UHGV virus genome: UHGV-0072288
DNA from: a virus
DNA: 13,766 nt
Direction: 5' to 3' (one strand)
The notes beneath the pieces were generated by a model that ran no database searches, had not been told where the DNA came from, and saw nothing but the letters and a program-made list of their open reading frames with translations. Position numbers and translations under genes: made by a program. This document shows, piece by piece, positions 1,205-8,028 of this stretch; within the stretch, counting starts at the first letter, position 1, and each line of letters begins with the position of its first letter.

Positions 1205-1504
1205 TTAGCCAATTTTCCGGGTGGAACGGGATGATGTTATGTTGTCTTGCCCATCAGGGGAGAGAGACGGGGACACCTGCCCCGCAATTGGTGCCGTCTT
1301 ATCTGTCATTAACCAGAGTGTATATTTTTCAAACATATGTACCTCTATAACACTTTCTAAGACTTCTGCACGAGCTGGCTGATGGCCAGTTTCGTACTTT
1401 TTTATTGTTCCAAGAGCTACCCCAGTAAGCTCTGAAAAATCTTTTTGAGTTAACCCTTCAGCTTTCCGGATCTGCCGGAGTTTCTCCGCATAATTTCTTG
1501 ACAT
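1205..1504 (-). CDS. C: Immunity repressor, P2 C-like (99 aa, HTH)
   Basis: 99-aa ORF with helix-turn-helix (LTQKDFSELTGVALGTIKKYETG) and C-terminal KYTLWLMT...APIAGQ pattern resembling P2 C (recalled from memory). Lies upstream of int on the same strand and divergent from a cox-like gene, as in P2. Confidence 0.75.
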   Translation of the reverse strand: MSRNYAEKLRQIRKAEGLTQKDFSELTGVALGTIKKYETGHQPARAEVLESVIEVHMFEKYTLWLMTDKTAPIAGQVSPSLSPDGQDNITSSRSTRKIG

Positions 1505-1612
1505 GGTTCTTGTATCGCAACTATTATTGGTTCTTACAAAAGAACCTTGACAAAAGAACCCTAGAACGACTTAAAGCGCCCTAGGAACCCAAACTAACGA
1601 AGGATACCACAG
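1505..1612. promoter_or_regulatory. Divergent Pc/Pe-type promoter-operator region between C and cox
   Basis: -35-like TTGACA at 1547-1552. Inverted repeat GGTTCTTACAAAAGAACC at 1529-1546. Repeated hexamer AGAACC/GGTTCT at 1505-1510, 1529-1534, 1541-1546, 1555-1560, 1584-1589. SD GAAGGA at 1599-1604, 8 nt before the cox ATG. Confidence 0.5.
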
Positions 1613-1894
1613 ATGAAGGAACCAGCAGAAAAGGCGCTTTCAGAGTTGGTGACCCCTGAGCTTTTTGCCGAATATATAGGCAAAACGCCTGCTGCAATTC
1701 GCAAAATGGCCACGGCTGGAAAACTGCCGGTAATCCGCATGAAAGACCCTCTAAATCCATCAAAAAAAGGTGGGGAAATCTATATCCATCGGGGGGAATG
1801 GGATGCTTATGCCATTCATTTGGCTCAAATTGCCCCGCCTGAATGGCATGACTGGAAGAACCGTTTATTCACGAAAGATAAAAGTGCTCGTTAG
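1613..1894 (+). CDS. cox: Cox-like small DNA-binding protein (excision/lysogeny-lytic switch)
   Basis: 93-aa ORF divergent from the repressor gene with a good SD. Position and size match P2 Cox / 186 Apl. Sequence similarity not verified. Confidence 0.55.
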   Translation: MKEPAEKALSELVTPELFAEYIGKTPAAIRKMATAGKLPVIRMKDPLNPSKKGGEIYIHRGEWDAYAIHLAQIAPPEWHDWKNRLFTKDKSAR

Positions 1895-1920
1895 TAAACT
1901 AAATATTATTGGGGATTATC

Positions 1921-2256
1921 ATGAAGACTAAATATGCCACGCTGATTCGTAGTCTGTTGCAAAACTATCACGCTCAGGCAAAAACCATTGATAAAGAAAC
2001 ATTCTCTGTACATAGCGATGGCTTGCAGTTAATGGAATTAAACATTCAGCTTGCAAAATGCCTTGAGGGTATAACCTCCACTGCTCGCTTTAATAATGAT
2101 AGTGATGATTTTGAAGAACTGCACAAAATCACGCTTATGGTATTTGGCGGAAATATACCAACTGAAAATAACATTTCCGGTCTTATGTCGCTGGCTACCA
2201 CAGCGTTAAAAAGTAATAACTCGCATCTTAAATCTGTTGCAGCTTCCCAACGTTAA
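1921..2256 (+). CDS. Hypothetical protein (AT-rich early-region cargo)
   Basis: ATG at 1921 preceded by GGGGA (1911-1915); the tool's 1909 start is TTG. 111 aa. Lower GC than flanking phage genes. No recognisable motif. Confidence 0.5.
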   Translation: MKTKYATLIRSLLQNYHAQAKTIDKETFSVHSDGLQLMELNIQLAKCLEGITSTARFNNDSDDFEELHKITLMVFGGNIPTENNISGLMSLATTALKSNNSHLKSVAASQR

Positions 2257-2265
2257 GGAACCGAT

Positions 2266-2835
2266 ATGAAACATTTAATGATTGACCTTGAAACAATGGA
2301 TAATAAACCGACTTCTGCGATTGCTTCTATCGGTGCTGTATTCTTTGACCCTGAAACTGGCGAAATGGGTGAACAGTTTTATCAACGTGTCAGCCTGGGC
2401 AGCTGTGTAGGCCACGGTCTCACTATGGGGTCAGAAACCGTATTATGGTGGATGCGTCAGGATGCCGAAGCGCGTAGCGAGCTGCTTAATGACGATTGTC
2501 TGGACTTGCCTCTGACGTTAGCTAATCTGGAAGCTTTTATTACTGAGCATTCTGACCCATCTAAAGTACAGGTATGGGGGAATAGTGCAGCGTTCGACAA
2601 TGTTATTTTACGTAATGCATCAGAGAAATGCGGGTTTGCCGATCCACTTTGGTACTACTGGAATGACCGTGATGTAAGAACGGTTGTTGAACTGTCAAAA
2701 ACACTTGGGCTGAATGTTCGTAATATTATTAAGTTTGATGGTGTTAAACATCACGCTTTATATGATGCCATTCATCAGGCTAAAGTTGTTTCTTATGTCT
2801 GGATGTATCTTGTAAAAATAGCCAGTGTGAAATAA
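2266..2835 (+). CDS. DEDDh-family 3'-5' exonuclease (DnaQ/epsilon-like)
   Basis: 189-aa ORF with Exo I motif MIDLETM (D-x-E), Exo II-like WGNSAAFDNVIL and Exo III HHALYDAIHQA (H-x4-D). SD AAGGA 6 nt upstream of ATG. Confidence 0.8.
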   Translation: MKHLMIDLETMDNKPTSAIASIGAVFFDPETGEMGEQFYQRVSLGSCVGHGLTMGSETVLWWMRQDAEARSELLNDDCLDLPLTLANLEAFITEHSDPSKVQVWGNSAAFDNVILRNASEKCGFADPLWYYWNDRDVRTVVELSKTLGLNVRNIIKFDGVKHHALYDAIHQAKVVSYVWMYLVKIASVK

Positions 2836-2837
2836 CG

Positions 2838-3056
2838 ATGCTTACAGTGACCTCTCATGCAAGTGAAAGTGTCATTCACAAGGCATTTTCAGTGCTGACA
2901 GAATATTACAACGGCAAAAAGGTATATCAGGTTATTAAGCCAAAACATTATTTCTCTGTTCATGTTTCTTATCGCTGGCGATTACTGAGTAAGGATAAGG
3001 GCAGAAGCTGGGAACTAATGACACATGAGCGATATAACAAGCAGTACAGAATATAG
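2838..3056 (+). CDS. Hypothetical small protein (72 aa)
   Basis: ATG 2 nt after the exonuclease stop, co-directional, ends just before the primase-helicase gene. No recognisable motif. Confidence 0.4.
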   Translation: MLTVTSHASESVIHKAFSVLTEYYNGKKVYQVIKPKHYFSVHVSYRWRLLSKDKGRSWELMTHERYNKQYRI

Positions 3057-3095
3057 TTTTTGCCTTTTACCCATTATTTCACATCTGGATTATTT

Positions 3096-5753
3096 ATGAA
3101 CGAAACGATACAACAGGACGTTGTGCGCCGTCTTGTTCGGGACTTTGAATTTAAAGAGCGGGATAAGTATTTGCAGCAGGGCGTTTGCCCTGCCTGTCGT
3201 AAGCGCGAATTATTTACCAGCATAGAAAAGCCCTGGATTCTGAAATGTGGCCGTGAAAATAACTGCGCACATCAGATTGTCGTGAAAGAGCTGTATCCGG
3301 ATATCTTTGAAGACTGGTCAAAACGTTACCAGACCACAGAAGATAACCCCCATGCAGTAGCTGAGGCGTATCTGCGCGAGGCCAGAGGGCTGGAGACTGA
3401 GCCATTAAAAGGCTGTTTTACCCAGGGTGCATTCGTGAAAGATGGCATGGGGTCGGCAACGGTCAGATTTTCGCTGTCATGCGGTGCAACATGGGAGCGC
3501 ATCATTGACCAGCCGCAGCGCTTCGGTAAGCAGAAAGCCAACATCAGGGGAAGCTATGTCGGTCACTGGTGGGTTCCTCCCTTTATCAACCTGCAGGAAG
3601 TGAACGAAATCTGGATCACTGAGGGAATCTTCAACGCGCTGAGTCTGTGCCAGGTAGGGTTACCTGCAGTTGCCACACTGAGCAGTAACAACTATCCGCT
3701 GGCCGCACTGGATACGCTGGCCAAAGAACTGGGTGAAAAACCACGTCCACGTCTTGTATGGGCGTTTGACGGCGATAAAGCCGGCACAAAGCACACACTG
3801 GCGTTCGCTGCCCGTAGTGATGCTGCAGGATGGAAAACTCGTGCCGCGCAGCCGGTGAAATCATCGGCATCGCTGGACTGGAATGACCTGTTGTTACGTA
3901 ACCGGTTCAGTAAGTCGGACATTAAAAATTATCGCTACTATGGCGATCTCCTTCTGGCAAAAAGCCCGACTGAGAAAGCGCTGCTCATGCATCAGCATAA
4001 CGAGTGGCACTCGTTCTACTTTGAGCATAACTCCCGCATGTACTGGTTTGAGCTGGATCTGGACAGGTATATGCGAGCCTATGAGCGCATCACCAATACC
4101 GGTACCGAAGTGGTGATGGAGTGGGAGGCCAAAGAACGGGCGGTTAAAGAGTCAGGCGGCGTGACCGAAATAGCTAACTGCTGGCTGACGCCGCTTTACT
4201 TTCAGCGGTCTGAACCTACGGACGAGTCCTGGTATTACGTGAAAGTCAGTATGCCTAACCGGCCAGCCGTGAAAGATACTTTCACGGCTAATCAGCTCAC
4301 CAGCTCCGCCGAGTTCAAAAAGCGTCTGCTGCACATCGCCAAAGGGGCGGTGTACACAGGCAGCACCAAACAGCTGGATAAGTTCATCCAGATGCGCCTC
4401 CCTGAAATCAAAGAGGTAAAGACGCAGAATTTCATCGGCTATAACAAGGATTATGCCGCCTGGTTGTTTAACCGCGTGGCCGTTTGCGATGGCCGGCTGT
4501 ATGAGATGAACGACGAGGATTACTTCGAAATCAACAGTGCCAGCGTTAAGAGCCTGAGCCTCACGCCGGCGCTGGATCTGAATCCGAAGCTGAACGAGTT
4601 TACTACGGGTTGGGTAGACGATATCTGGACGGCATTTGGTGAAAAAGGGTATGTGGCGCTGGCGTTCTGGCTGGGGTCGCTGTTTGCCGAACAAATCCGC
4701 GAGCGTGACAAGTCATTTCCGTTTCTGGAAATCGTGGGCGAGCCGGGGACAGGTAAATCCACGCTGATAGAATTTCTCTGGAAGCTCGCCGGCCGTGAGG
4801 AATACGAAGGGTTTGACCCATCTAAATCTACCGCCGCCGCGCGTGGCCGTAACTTCGCCCAGGTCGGTAATCTGCCGGTTGTGCTGATTGAGGGCGACCG
4901 TACTACCGATAACGCCAAGCAACGCGCTTTTGACTGGGACGAGCTGAAATCACTGTATAACGGTCGTGCCTCCCGCGCCGTGGGTATCAAATCGAACAAT
5001 AACGAGACGTATGAGCCGCCGTTCAGGGGAAGTATTGTGATAGCGCAAAATGCCGACACAGACGGCAGCAAGGCGTTTCTGGAGCGTATCATCCACATCT
5101 ATACCGACAAGCGCGGCCAGTCCATTCAGACGCGCCACGCTGCAGAACGACTTGAACAACTCCCCGTTAGCCAGGTATCCGGATTCACATTACTGGCCAC
5201 CATGCGCGAAAAAGAAATCATGCAGACGTTCGGCAGGGGGTACGAGCGAGCTAGGAATGAGCTGGAGTCTAATAGCAGTATTCGCCATATCCGTATTGCA
5301 AAGAATCACGCGCAGCTTGTGGGCTTGCTGGAGGCGCTTGCACTTGTTGTACCGGTGCCGGTTGAACGTATAGAAAAAACGCGTGAAGCCATCACCGCGC
5401 TGGCCGTTGAACGTTGTCAGGCACTTAAAAAGGATCATCCTCTGGTGCAGGAGTTCTGGGAGCTGTTTGATTACTTGGATGAACTGGCACCTTATGGCAT
5501 CAATCATTCATCAGATGAAAATGAAATCGCGGTTAATTTCAATCACATGGAAGAGGTCGCCGCAGCACACCGGCAGCGTATTCCGTTCACGTTAACGGAA
5601 ATTAAAAAGCTGCTTAAAAACGGCAATGAGCGCCGGTTTATCAGACAAAGCACCACGCGCAGCGCGGTAAGTGAGCGCCATAATCGTGGTAAAGGGGATA
5701 TGCAACGGATGCCGGAAACATTCCGCTGCTGGATATTTGGCCGGGAAAAGTAA
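3096..5753 (+). CDS. Replication primase-helicase (zinc-ribbon + TOPRIM primase + SF3/D5-type helicase), P4 alpha-like architecture
   Basis: N-terminal Cys4 zinc ribbon (CPAC...CGRENNC). TOPRIM motifs (WITEGIFNAL; VWAFDGDKAG). C-terminal P-loop NTPase with Walker A GEPGTGKST, Walker B PVVLIEGD and motif C IVIAQNAD. The tool starts at TTG 3060; ATG 3096 (MNETIQQ) preferred. Confidence 0.85.
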   Translation: MNETIQQDVVRRLVRDFEFKERDKYLQQGVCPACRKRELFTSIEKPWILKCGRENNCAHQIVVKELYPDIFEDWSKRYQTTEDNPHAVAEAYLREARGLETEPLKGCFTQGAFVKDGMGSATVRFSLSCGATWERIIDQPQRFGKQKANIRGSYVGHWWVPPFINLQEVNEIWITEGIFNALSLCQVGLPAVATLSSNNYPLAALDTLAKELGEKPRPRLVWAFDGDKAGTKHTLAFAARSDAAGWKTRAAQPVKSSASLDWNDLLLRNRFSKSDIKNYRYYGDLLLAKSPTEKALLMHQHNEWHSFYFEHNSRMYWFELDLDRYMRAYERITNTGTEVVMEWEAKERAVKESGGVTEIANCWLTPLYFQRSEPTDESWYYVKVSMPNRPAVKDTFTANQLTSSAEFKKRLLHIAKGAVYTGSTKQLDKFIQMRLPEIKEVKTQNFIGYNKDYAAWLFNRVAVCDGRLYEMNDEDYFEINSASVKSLSLTPALDLNPKLNEFTTGWVDDIWTAFGEKGYVALAFWLGSLFAEQIRERDKSFPFLEIVGEPGTGKSTLIEFLWKLAGREEYEGFDPSKSTAAARGRNFAQVGNLPVVLIEGDRTTDNAKQRAFDWDELKSLYNGRASRAVGIKSNNNETYEPPFRGSIVIAQNADTDGSKAFLERIIHIYTDKRGQSIQTRHAAERLEQLPVSQVSGFTLLATMREKEIMQTFGRGYERARNELESNSSIRHIRIAKNHAQLVGLLEALALVVPVPVERIEKTREAITALAVERCQALKKDHPLVQEFWELFDYLDELAPYGINHSSDENEIAVNFNHMEEVAAAHRQRIPFTLTEIKKLLKNGNERRFIRQSTTRSAVSERHNRGKGDMQRMPETFRCWIFGREK

Positions 5754-5766
5754 CGGTTCACTAGTG

Positions 5767-5831
5767 CCTAACTTTATTGTTAGGGGAAGGAGCGAACATT
5801 GAAGCAATAGGGGCGTTATCTTTATTGCTTC
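5767..5831. terminator. Two hairpins between convergent primase-helicase and glycosyltransferase genes (candidate terminators)
   Basis: Hairpin CCTAAC-TTTATT-GTTAGG at 5767-5784. Hairpin GAAGCAATA-(13 nt)-TATTGCTTC at 5801-5831 followed by a T-rich stretch on the + strand. The second overlaps the stop of the minus-strand gene. Confidence 0.4.
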
Positions 5832-6541
5832 ATTCTTATTTTAAAGTTCTTTAATTTACCGTACAGAGTATCCCGCAGGGAAAACGAAGGAACCCAATCA
5901 AAACCAGTACGCCAGGGGCGTGGACTGCCATGAAAGCAAACAACCGCCACATTATCAGGGACTTTCCCTGTCGCAGCCTCAGAGGCTAAATTTGCATTGA
6001 AGCCAATCATCGAGGGGGTGGCGATGTCACATTTATAACTAACAATTGAGCCAGGAATGATATCCTGCCATAGGGCTGGTTTTATGATGCTACCGAGAAA
6101 TCCCTGATCACCCCATTTGTCTTCAGTCTGACAATTGCGCATAATTTTCTCAGGATCAATAATGAATTGTTCCCAAATCGTCTTTTTAATCGACGCCGGA
6201 ATCATCATTATTGATGAGTTTACTCTTGAGGCATGGTTAAACTCCCGAAGCATTGTAAATTTCTTCGCACCTTCGAAAATATGAATATCTCCCGTGACCA
6301 CAACATCTACGTCAAAATAGAGTAAATCTTGGTCTCCAAGGACTGGGTGATTAGGATTAAATAGTTCAATTTTAGACCACCATCCCGGCCAGTTATAAAG
6401 CAAAGGGGTTGTGTTAACTCCAGGAATATTATCTGCATCGGTTAAACATATAGATGGAATATCTTTGAACTGACGATGAAGCCATTGGGCGTGTTTAGGG
6501 GTAAACTCTTTACTACATTTAAGAACTGAGACTATTAACAT
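5822..6541 (-). CDS. GT-A fold nucleotide-sugar glycosyltransferase-like protein (GT8-like motifs), hotspot cargo
   Basis: 239-aa ORF with strong SD (GGGAGG 6 nt before ATG at 6541). DxD motif after a hydrophobic strand (LLYFDVDVVV). C-terminal FHGSPRPW resembling the GT8 H-x-G-x-x-K/R-P-W motif. Noticeably AT-rich. Confidence 0.6.
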   Translation of the reverse strand: MLIVSVLKCSKEFTPKHAQWLHRQFKDIPSICLTDADNIPGVNTTPLLYNWPGWWSKIELFNPNHPVLGDQDLLYFDVDVVVTGDIHIFEGAKKFTMLREFNHASRVNSSIMMIPASIKKTIWEQFIIDPEKIMRNCQTEDKWGDQGFLGSIIKPALWQDIIPGSIVSYKCDIATPSMIGFNANLASEAATGKVPDNVAVVCFHGSPRPWRTGFDWVPSFSLRDTLYGKLKNFKIRMKQ

Positions 6542-6600
6542 AAGATGCCTCCCAAAATTTGGAAAGATAATATCATGTTTAGGAGGGGGGGACTATTAAT
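6542..6600 (-). promoter_or_regulatory. Putative promoter/5' region of the glycosyltransferase gene, containing a homopolymer tract
   Basis: SD GGGAGG (complement of 6548-6553). -10-like TATTAT (complement of 6568-6573). G7 run on + strand at 6585-6591 (C7 in the gene's sense) where the spacer/-35 would lie. No convincing -35. Confidence 0.3.
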
Positions 6601-6655
6601 CACTTGGTCATTCATCGACGTTGATAGATGGGAATCTGTTACATCTCAGAAAATA

Positions 6656-6680
6656 AAAGCACCGGTAGCGGTGCTTTTTT
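6656..6680. terminator. Bidirectional rho-independent terminator
   Basis: Stem GCACCG/CGGTGC (6659-6664 / 6669-6674), extendable with A-T pairs, loop GTAG. T6 at 6675-6680 on the + strand and AAAATAAAA at 6650-6658 (U-run for the minus-strand transcript). Immediately follows the stop of the Ogr-like gene. Confidence 0.65.
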
Positions 6681-7010
6681 CTATGCGGCAGCAGTGCCGT
6701 CCTGACTCAGAAACTTTAACATCAGCTGCTTTTGCTGGATATCAAGGCTGTTACAGATAGTGGCGATCAACGCATCGCTGGATTTGGCGCTGGGGCTGAT
6801 GGTATGTGAGAATGTCATATTCATCACAAAAGTGTGACCACATTCAACATCGGTACACGCGCAATATAAATCCGACAGTTCCTTGTGTTTTCGGGCTGTT
6901 TTTTTGATAACAGCCCTTGCCTCACATACCGGACAGTAAACCTTCATTACCCGCATATCCATCGCTCCGGAAGTTGGAAAACGATGATATTTTAGCCTTT
7001 TTGCGAACAT
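6681..7010 (-). CDS. ogr: Ogr/Delta-family zinc-finger protein (late-gene transcription activator family)
   Basis: CPVC-x22-CACTDVEC-GHTFV pattern matching P2 Ogr (CPLC...CQNVNCSATFI, from memory). Start ATG at 7010 overlaps the portal stop (TAATG) with SD GGAAGGTG upstream. Alternative internal starts at 6956/6947 would give an Ogr-sized ~88-91 aa protein. Confidence 0.65.
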   Translation of the reverse strand: MFAKRLKYHRFPTSGAMDMRVMKVYCPVCEARAVIKKTARKHKELSDLYCACTDVECGHTFVMNMTFSHTISPSAKSSDALIATICNSLDIQQKQLMLKFLSQDGTAAA

Positions 7011-8028
7011 TAATCACCTTCCAGCTCACTGTCTTTCAGGAAATTAAGGTACAGGTGGGGCGGTACATCACTTTCCTGTTCCACTGCGGCGGTAAACATG
7101 CGCTGAATGGGCAAAATTTCTGCTTTGCGGTAGGTTTTGGACGCTTTCTCAACATCTCCCATTACTGCGCCGTTCGTCGGGATAATCCCCGCCAGTCCTG
7201 CCGGGAATCGATGCGCGGTCAGTACGTCCTGGGCGCTGATGCTCTTGATGTTCTGAAACTCATCTTTGGCGCTGATATCCCCAATCGGGATAAATTTGAT
7301 GCCGTCCGGATCGCCTTTGGGGATGTTCACAAACATGGTGCTGAAGTTCCCGATCCCCTTTGACTGCTCCAGCTTCTGAATAATTTCTTCTTCCACTTCA
7401 TCAGTCATATTTGGGTCGTTACAGTAGATCATGCCACCTGTGTGTCCGCCGTTATGGTAGTAACGCCGACGAAAAATTGTTGCCTCACCGTTAAGCAGGG
7501 CAGAATGGATACCGCTGATATAATCCGGCAGACCATAAATCGCCTGTTGCGGATCGTACTGCCTGAGAAAAATAATATCTTCAGGCGGATAAATCATCGG
7601 TTCACCCTGCTGCAGTACCACAAACTCCCCGGTCTTACGCTGGCGGGTGAAGTGGAAGCCGGGGGTTACGGTCCCCCCCCCCCCCCCCAGCCGTTACGCA
7701 CTTTCAGAATGGCCACATCACCGAAGGTCAGCCAGTCGAACACGGCTGCACCAAGCTGTTCATGCGTCAGTCCGCCGTCTTTATAGTTTGCCGTCACCAT
7801 ATTGCGACGGGCATACAGCACACCGCCGTGCTGCGCGTTCAGGTTCACCAGTTGCGCCAGCGCCAGCCGGTCAATCGGGAGCGTCCAGTGTTCCGCTTCA
7901 TTGTCATACCAGACGTCTGTGTAGTTTGTGCCGGTCGTCAGAATGGGTTCCGGTTTACCCAGGGTAATAAGGCTCATATGGCGCGGCTTGCTGGCGGTGC
8001 GGCGTTCCCTGTATTTCCGTTTTTTCAT
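7010..8028 (-). pseudogene. Q: Portal protein (P2 gpQ-like), frame interrupted by a 16-nt homopolymer
   Basis: Two minus-strand ORFs (7666-8028 and 7010-7621) together give ~340 aa, matching the ~344-aa P2 portal. The upstream frame reads ...LKVRNGWGGGGGP-stop through the G16 tract. The downstream frame is open back through the tract (...GGGGGTVTPGFHFTRQRKTGEFVVLQQGEPM...). ATGA overlap with the terminase stop at 8025-8028. Confidence 0.8.
7673..7688. repeat. Homopolymeric tract C16 (+ strand) = G16 in the portal coding sense
   Basis: Direct count: 16 consecutive C at 7673-7688. Tract lengths of 14 or 17 would join the two portal reading frames; the observed 16 does not. Confidence 0.95.

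Follow-up and report, generated by a model that had tools for sequence, protein, structure and literature searches.

A PmgQ-family glycosyltransferase gene as mobile cargo in a variable hotspot of a P2-like Escherichia coli prophage, with a possible role in modifying the lipopolysaccharide core

Cargo between the primase and portal genes

We analyzed a stretch of viral DNA of 13,766 nucleotides (UHGV virus genome UHGV-0072288; hereafter the window), which is a decayed copy, 13.8 kb long, of a P2-like (Peduoviridae, Evevirus-type) Escherichia coli prophage. Between its replication and portal genes, the window carries a gene for a 239-residue glycosyltransferase (GT) of the family that includes phage P1 PmgQ. 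This gene is cargo in a variable hotspot and may act on the lipopolysaccharide (LPS) core of the host. The genes and signals at the locus are the following, the intact copy of the prophage in E. coli strain NT1F10 (locus L001; RefSeq annotation) serving as the reference for decay of the window.

5822..6541, minus strand: GT cargo gene, 239 amino acids, PmgQ/PHROG 1962 family, predicted GT8-like GT-A enzyme.
6548..6575, minus strand: putative expression signals of the GT gene, with an extended -10 element TGATATTAT at 6575-6567 and a Shine-Dalgarno sequence GGGAGG at 6553-6548.
5800..5832, plus strand: terminator-like hairpin from a terminator scan, a 14-bp stem followed by TTCTTATTTT; part of the inserted cassette.
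6655..6678, both strands: bidirectional intrinsic terminator hairpin AAAAGCACCGGTAGCGGTGCTTTT, directly after the ogr stop codon; right edge of the hotspot.
6681..7010, minus strand: gene for an Ogr/Delta-type zinc-finger late-gene activator, 109 amino acids (Pfam PF04606 Ogr_Delta, 1.1e-15, above the cut-off).
3096..5753, plus strand: primase/helicase gene (Toprim and D5-like; Pfam Toprim_3, 2.6e-11; PHROG 1139 DNA primase, E = 0).
7010..8028, minus strand: portal gene (Pfam Phage_portal), with a scrambled 35-bp patch at 7648-7682 relative to the intact NT1F10 copy.

The primase/helicase gene is the last backbone gene at the left edge of the hotspot. We compared the locus among 30 relatives, namely, IMG/VR loci with a primase 85-100% identical to that of the window. 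In these, the slot that extends from the primase stop codon to the terminator hairpin by ogr ranged from 27 to 2106 bp and showed at least 10 cargo states. The cargo was low in guanine-plus-cytosine content (GC), and the contents of the slot were distributed as follows.

Empty slot: 7 of 30 loci.
Small protein with a ClpX-type zinc finger: 5 of 30 loci.
Protein of 282-330 residues (predicted membrane segments, long coiled coil): 4 of 30 loci (L011, L015, L020, L023).
Other small open reading frames (ORFs): 4 of 30 loci.
GT identical to the window gene: 3 of 30 loci.
Membrane peptide of 55 residues: 3 of 30 loci.
P2-type Old nuclease (OLD-like TOPRIM): 1 of 30 loci, at L013:5576-7682, minus strand (PADLOC Old, 1.4e-215).
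DUF6232: 1 of 30 loci.
DUF2528 with a small ORF: 1 of 30 loci.
No ogr or portal match downstream: 1 of 30 loci.

The protein of 282-330 residues belonged to no Pfam family and gave a weak coiled-coil match to LmuB. In the sequenced phage ESSI2_ev239, two small genes occupy the slot. The hotspot of P2 has been defined as the gpA-gpQ interval, from the replication to the portal gene, which holds old and tin and harbors many anti-phage systems (Rousset et al. 2022, PMC9122126). The slot described here is a genuine variable hotspot, and it is the positional equivalent of the P2 old/tin locus, because L013 carries the Old nuclease in the same slot and on the same strand as the GT.

We then delimited the cargo. 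The hairpin at 5800-5832 overlaps the last GT codons, including the stop codon, and is missing from relatives with other cargo. It would terminate the primase operon, because its T-run lies on the plus strand only. The strong hairpin at 6655-6678 is kept in the relatives, even where the slot is empty and the primase stop codon directly precedes it. This terminator is part of the backbone and sets the GT gene apart from the late portal-ogr operon. As for ogr itself, the zinc-finger spacing of its product is C26-X2-C29-X22-C52-X4-C57, its ATG overlaps the portal stop codon (TAATG) in the window, and in 28 of the 30 relatives it immediately follows the portal gene, whatever the cargo. ogr is phage backbone, the phage's own late activator, and stands outside the GT module; its pairing with the GT gene is positional and coincidental, because ogr overlaps the portal stop codon and keeps the same place in 28/30 relatives.

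By composition the GT gene is distinct, with a GC of 0.41 (0.38 at third codon positions, GC3) versus 0.50 for the window and 0.52 (GC3, 0.59) for the primase gene. Its Shine-Dalgarno sequence is placed 6 nt upstream of the ATG. An Ogr-type late promoter (TGT-N12-ACA) upstream of the gene was considered and rejected, as the window held three matches, none of them intergenic, for 3.6 expected by chance. The sole other ORF of at least 40 amino acids in the cargo interval outside the GT gene, at 6545-6760 on the plus strand (71 amino acids), was treated as spurious, since it had no family match and overlaps the terminator hairpin.

A preliminary description of this locus, made from the letters alone, had placed a variable cargo hotspot at the P2 tin/old position, spanning 5754-7010, and had suggested comparing related prophages. 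The variability of the 30 relatives, three of which carry the GT, upholds the hotspot, as do the slot sizes and the Old nuclease of L013, but the true cargo runs from about 5754 to 6654, since ogr, which had been counted as cargo, belongs to the backbone. Of the two options it had allowed for the GT-Ogr pairing, functional or coincidental, the second is the one retained. The GT gene had also been described as flanked by terminators, which holds for the bidirectional backbone hairpin at 6655-6678 but not for the hairpin at 5800-5832, which has no T-run on the GT strand. Similarly, of the promoter and Shine-Dalgarno sequence attributed to the gene, the latter stands and the former is reduced to an extended -10 element. 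The ORF positions (5822-6541, minus strand, 239 amino acids; 6681-7010, minus strand, 109 amino acids) and the AT richness of the GT gene were confirmed.

Fold and family of the glycosyltransferase

Scans of the 239-residue protein against Pfam, NCBIfam, and PADLOC gave no match, and a PDB search with the single sequence returned nothing, but family profile and fold searches did find matches. PHROG 1962, labeled "glycosyltransferase", matched at 5.8e-81, with residues 1-223 of the GT on positions 1-224 of the 230-position profile, and tblastn gave 40% identity over 221 residues to P1 PmgQ/P7 HdmD. Against PDB, the family profile matched Skp1 alpha-galactosyltransferase (alpha-GalT) at 5e-7 and glycogenin at 1e-5. 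With a 40-sequence alignment as input, AlphaFold2 produced a model with a mean predicted local distance difference test (pLDDT) score of 96, for which Foldseek and a fold search returned a GT-A Rossmann-like fold with GT8 enzymes as the nearest solved structures.

The catalytic motifs agreed with this assignment. Residues K57, D77xD79, G144-D145-Q146-G147, and the R-P-W motif align with their GT8 counterparts. D77-V-D79 and GDQG (144-147) are invariant or nearly so in the 40 homologues and align with the DAD and GDQG motifs of glycogenin; every invariant residue of the family in the 40-sequence alignment is kept in the window GT. The C-terminal motif reads C202-F-H204-G-S-P-R208-P-W210, where Arg replaces the Lys of the GT8 motif H-[FY]-x-G-x-x-K-P-W. 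None of the 40 family members reached the gathering score of PF01501 (Glyco_transf_8), and six gave weak matches, the best with an E value of 0.006. Counted as 50%-identity clusters among 1.84 billion representatives, the family comprises ∼1,270 at E<=1e-30 and ∼3,600 at E<=1e-10.

As judged from the profiles and the structural model, the 239-residue protein is a GT-A, GT8-like glycosyltransferase, and analogy with GT8 enzymes predicts a retaining, metal-dependent uridine diphosphate (UDP)-hexose transferase. The preliminary description had likewise proposed a GT-A glycosyltransferase that is not a classical defense gene, and the remote-homology and structure searches agree with the first statement, as does the absence of a PADLOC match with the second. 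The DxD motif that it had listed is present, but the H-x-G-x-x-R-P-W motif was misstated and is in fact C-F-H-G-S-P-R-P-W at 202-210.

Mobility and genomic contexts of the family

Copies of the GT gene were found at accessory sites of several prophages. In a related Citrobacter prophage, a 79% identical copy occupies the opposite end, adjoining the chromosomal flank; another, 75% identical, is located in the lambdoid phage Chlobot between int and the tail-fiber/lom genes; and in an E. albertii prophage, a 53% identical copy stands last, behind the tail-fiber and assembly genes. In one Salmonella enterica s1 genome (CP191473.1), two GT paralogues of 83% and 75% identity occupy different loci (L128 and L129), and one of them adjoins tail-fiber and assembly genes. 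The copies with 75-83% identity are distributed over unrelated phage types (lambdoid, P2-like, and another P2-type prophage with a contractile tail), the structural proteins of which are unrelated as well. Copies at accessory sites share no common upstream sequence, and most are followed by a hairpin of their own. The gene is mobile between accessory sites.

The cassette at ∼5754-6654 is best read as a moron, a self-contained accessory transcription unit with a putative promoter. It has a deviant composition and its gene occurs at different sites, its promoter signal is an extended -10 element only, and the hairpin downstream of it has no T-run on the strand of the GT gene. The same phage lineage carries another accessory gene of interest. 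At the end of the intact E. coli prophage we found an Acyl_transf_3 (Oac-type) gene (L208:3483-4670; NZ_CP075462.1 1208982-1210169), the product of which is 96% identical to the "O-acetyltransferase" of ESSI2_ev239 (L002:911-2014). In the Citrobacter relative, this prophage-end position holds the GT gene instead.

Outside phages, the nearest homologue (47-49% identity) is encoded in Pectobacterium, within a chromosomal LPS core (waa) operon with the order GT9 heptosyltransferase, GT4, WaaP kinase, sulfatase-family protein, canonical GT8 with a GT8C domain, WaaZ/MptE-like protein, PmgQ-family GT, and GT25; the sulfatase-family protein is, by inference, EptB-like. Klebsiella and Raoultella homologues (42-43%) lie beside kbl, with hldD, waaF (4e-220), waaC (9e-177), and a WaaZ-like gene on one side and other core GTs on the other. 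In Morganella, a homologue (38%) is part of the same array of GT gene, gene for ∼410 amino acids, and WaaZ-like gene, the other neighbors being unannotated. Yokenella and Halomonas also have a WaaZ-like neighbor of a family member. These WaaZ-like neighbors scored 68 bits against an NCBIfam WaaZ cut-off of 200.

A comparable association was observed in phages. The P1 operon pmgN-pmgO-pmgP-ppp-pmgQ lies behind a C1 operator (L036:3144-5702 covers pmgO, pmgP, ppp, and pmgQ), and both PmgO and PmgP are MptE/WaaZ-like, with sub-threshold Pfam matches and matches to phrog_4603 and phrog_2111. PmgO, PmgP, and PmgQ of P1 would thereby appear, from their sequences, to form a glycan-building module behind the C1 operator. 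The two-enzyme module of a GT and a PmgO/PmgP-like protein also occurs in Citrobacter phage phiNP, and a PmgO/PmgP (MptE/WaaZ-like) partner was present in 15 of 25 IMG/VR clusters at 70% identity. Moreover, among 16 long family members, 12 have the GT8-like domain and a PmgO/PmgP/WaaZ-like domain fused into one protein, in either order (P0086, P0124, P0156, P0170, P0204, P0224, P0236, P0264, and others).

Two further contexts were recorded. Many HK97-type prophages carry the homologue within the head-neck module, where the genes run major capsid protein, (PmgO-like), (FkbM methyltransferase, PF05050), GT, connector, the two in parentheses being frequent companions. This arrangement accounted for 10 of the 25 clusters and for many genome loci (L039-L042, L059-L077, L136, L144-L150, L157-L163, L175-L176, L180, and L190). 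This head-neck GT cassette of phages of Gram-negative bacteria, of which we found no description in the papers searched, may serve virion glycosylation. In Pseudescherichia and metagenomic sequences (L035, L151-L155, and L164), the genes for the GT and for PmgP-like and PmgO-like proteins are scattered among giant adhesin genes of the Big_1/invasin type. In a rough neighbor-joining tree, the solitary clade of the window GT was nested among enterobacterial sequences, including waa-cluster and WaaZ-adjacent members, and the head-module sequences formed a separate, more distant group.

Regarding its source, the prophage of the window occupies a site between pheA/pheL and raiA in 18 of 5,426 complete E. 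coli genomes, and the strains that carry it come mostly from pigs and pork. The GT ORF is 100% identical in the 18 genomes, and positions 5400-7400 of the window are 100% identical to intact E. coli prophages. Compared with the NT1F10 copy, int has a 1-bp insertion at 551 and is frameshifted, 645 bp of the terminase gene are deleted after 8623, and further deletions removed head and tail genes (8.2 kb after ∼11427 and 3.9 kb after ∼12444). The aligned segments overlap by 2-8 nt at the deletion junctions. The exact deleted arrangement was absent from the complete E. coli genomes in the collection searched. The decay is recent, because only ∼6 point differences, portal patch excluded, separate the two copies across the 8.6 kb upstream of the terminase deletion. 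As a side observation, the early operon contains a low-GC stretch (0.36-0.40) at 1800-3150, within which lie a gene for an Rv2179c-like 3'-5' exonuclease (2266-2835; Pfam, 1.1e-67) and small ORFs at 1909-2256 and 2838-3056 that matched no family.

Possible function and comparison with known systems

We propose that the cassette is a moron that modifies the LPS core of the host and brings about lysogenic conversion or receptor masking, a reading to which we give an even chance on comparative sequence evidence. The cassette at ∼5754-6654 would be expressed in the lysogen and give rise to a cytoplasmic, metal-dependent, retaining GT8-like hexosyltransferase. This enzyme would take a UDP-hexose as its donor and transfer the hexose to lipid A-core on the cytoplasmic side of the inner membrane, so that the LPS core displayed by the lysogen would be altered. 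The core receptor of other phages would then be masked or changed, amounting to superinfection exclusion, and O-antigen ligation or host interactions might be affected as well.

Several lines of evidence favor a core target. Core clusters hold the nearest cellular homologues, the protein that usually accompanies the family is homologous to the KdoIII transferase WaaZ, the same phage lineage swaps the GT for an O-antigen-type acetylase (Acyl_transf_3), and the conserved terminator insulates the GT gene from late transcription. In addition, since near-identical GT copies travel between unrelated phage types, a conserved acceptor in the host suits them better than virion proteins specific to one phage do. 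The surface glycan that the preliminary description had envisaged as a target thereby gains comparative support, from the waa-cluster homologues of Pectobacterium and Klebsiella and from the Oac-type moron of the lineage. A broader version is more tentative and, in our view, somewhat doubtful: that the PmgQ-family GT, which in most cases has a WaaZ-like ulosonic-acid transferase as neighbor or fusion partner, would be a phage-borne LPS-core remodeling module, reduced here to a single-gene, receptor-masking exclusion factor in the old/tin hotspot.

Other observations weigh against a role in core modification. The window GT lacks the WaaZ-like partner that most homologues have. The extended -10 element TGATATTAT has no good -35 element, and a consensus promoter scan found no promoter on the GT strand. 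C202 occupies the column of the canonical metal-binding His of GT8, and the invariant His comes two residues later. The basic C-terminal helix (residues 222-238) was evaluated as an amphipathic membrane anchor and dropped, since its hydrophobic moment (muH) was only 0.20 and it is not convincingly amphipathic. The PmgQ family is without any characterized member; P1 pmgQ is non-essential and annotated just as "putative morphogenetic function", and we found no functional study in the literature on PmgQ/HdmD, on phage GTs with an FkbM methyltransferase, or on prophage core-modifying GTs. Furthermore, P1 represses the pmgN-pmgQ operon in lysogens through the C1 operator, which, together with the head-module contexts, points to a lytic-phase and possibly a virion role for much of the family. 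Finally, glycosylation of adhesins, and hence protein acceptors, is possible in the Pseudescherichia contexts.

The enzyme could instead act on another cytoplasmic target, either a small molecule or a protein of the host or phage, as a defense, counter-defense, or host-takeover factor. We judge this unlikely, if somewhat less so than the explanations that follow. The Old nuclease found in the slot of a relative and the abundance of anti-phage systems in the P2 hotspot speak in its favor, as do the ability of GT8 enzymes to glycosylate proteins and the Pseudescherichia module among adhesin genes. However, PADLOC did not recognize the GT, the cassette is a single gene without a partner sensor or effector gene, and the comparative contexts are glycan-building clusters.

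Decoration of phage capsid or tail proteins late in infection is the main rival, and we rate its probability as rather low. Virion glycosylation reportedly occurs in some mycobacteriophages. Homologues inside the head-neck module (10/25 clusters and many loci), the protein-glycan GTs among the top structural matches (glycogenin, Skp1 GalT, GlyE, and UGGT), and the shared strand of the GT gene and the late terminase-portal-ogr operon are consistent with such a function. Yet in the window a strong conserved terminator stands between the GT gene and this operon, the 75-83% identical copies in phages with unrelated structural proteins fit a host target better, and the nearest non-phage homologues belong to waa clusters.

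The two remaining explanations together account for only a small share of what we consider probable. The gene might be a passenger without current function, given that the prophage is defective, with a frameshifted int, a scrambled portal gene, and terminase and tail deletions. This seems improbable, as the ORF is unchanged in the 18 complete E. coli genomes with all invariant family residues kept, and the decay is recent. Glycosylation of the phage genome against restriction is the least probable and was rejected on fold and context: phage GT-A enzymes hypermodifying 5-hydroxymethylcytosine (5hmC) exist, but these are JGT-like, carry R...DDD...EDY motifs, and adjoin enzymes forming 5-methylcytosine (5mC) or 5hmC. 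A phage DNA glycosyltransferase would be expected to have a JGT-like or T4-type fold and neighbors forming 5hmC or 5-hydroxymethyluracil (5hmU), whereas the fold of the window GT is GT8-like and neither Pfam/PHROG scans of the larger window ORFs nor the RefSeq annotation of the intact prophage revealed a gene for a cytosine methyltransferase, 5mC dioxygenase, or hydroxymethylase.

The hotspot, and prophage glycan-modifying morons in general, were already known, and the family was catalogued but uncharacterized. The new findings are that the PmgQ family is tied to waa clusters and to WaaZ-like partners, that it occurs as single-gene cargo in an old/tin-equivalent hotspot, and that ogr belongs to the backbone. 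Although prophage hotspots are searched for defense systems, a GT cargo of this kind escapes every defense catalogue. P1, P2, and many lytic coliphages use the LPS core as their receptor. If the core is indeed the target, lysogenic conversion would no longer be confined to the well-known O-antigen systems (Gtr, Oac), and strain differences in phage susceptibility could in part be explained. Should the broader version hold as well, hotspot cargo would include a glycosyltransferase-based class, and a first function would be at hand for P1 pmgO, pmgP, and pmgQ, all still carrying the "putative morphogenetic function" label, and for ∼1,300-3,600 sequence clusters of uncharacterized phage and bacterial proteins.

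Compared with the P2 old/tin cargo, the slot is alike in lying between replication and portal genes, in being highly variable, and in holding Old in one relative. It differs in that a primase-helicase replaces gpA, ogr separates the slot from the portal gene, and the GT is not a defense system recognized by PADLOC. The GT shares with the CAZy GT8 enzymes (LgtC, WaaI/J-type core GTs, glycogenin, and Skp1 alpha-GalT) the predicted GT-A fold and the K, DxD, GDQG, and [K/R]-P-W elements, and PmgQ-family homologues adjoin canonical GT8 enzymes in waa core operons. In contrast, it is ∼100 residues shorter than the WaaI/J-type enzymes and has no GT8C domain, and its family remains below the PF01501 gathering score, with Cys at the canonical His position and His two residues further on.

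Like P1 PmgQ and P7 HdmD, the window GT is the product of a phage accessory gene of PHROG 1962 without a characterized function. However, pmgQ closes a C1-controlled operon with genes for PmgO, PmgP (MptE/WaaZ-like), and a phosphatase, whereas the window gene is solitary, with its own putative expression signals, and its product has a basic C-terminal extension of ∼20 residues that is common only to close enterobacterial relatives. The modules with the KdoIII transferase WaaZ of E. coli are similar in that a WaaZ/MptE-like protein, as neighbor or fusion, is the usual partner of the PmgQ-family GT, but the window encodes no such partner.

Serotype conversion provides the last comparison. The Gtr systems are three-gene, membrane-bound, and periplasmic and act on the O antigen, whereas the window encodes a single soluble GT-A enzyme that is predicted to be cytoplasmic and to act on the core; the slot holds this one gene and not the set of gtrA (flippase), gtrB (bactoprenol GT), and a GT-C gtr gene. 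Both gtrABC and the Oac-type acetylases nevertheless resemble the GT cargo as accessory genes located at prophage ends or near tail-fiber genes, and they alter LPS, as the GT may do; an Oac-type Acyl_transf_3 gene is present in this phage lineage itself.

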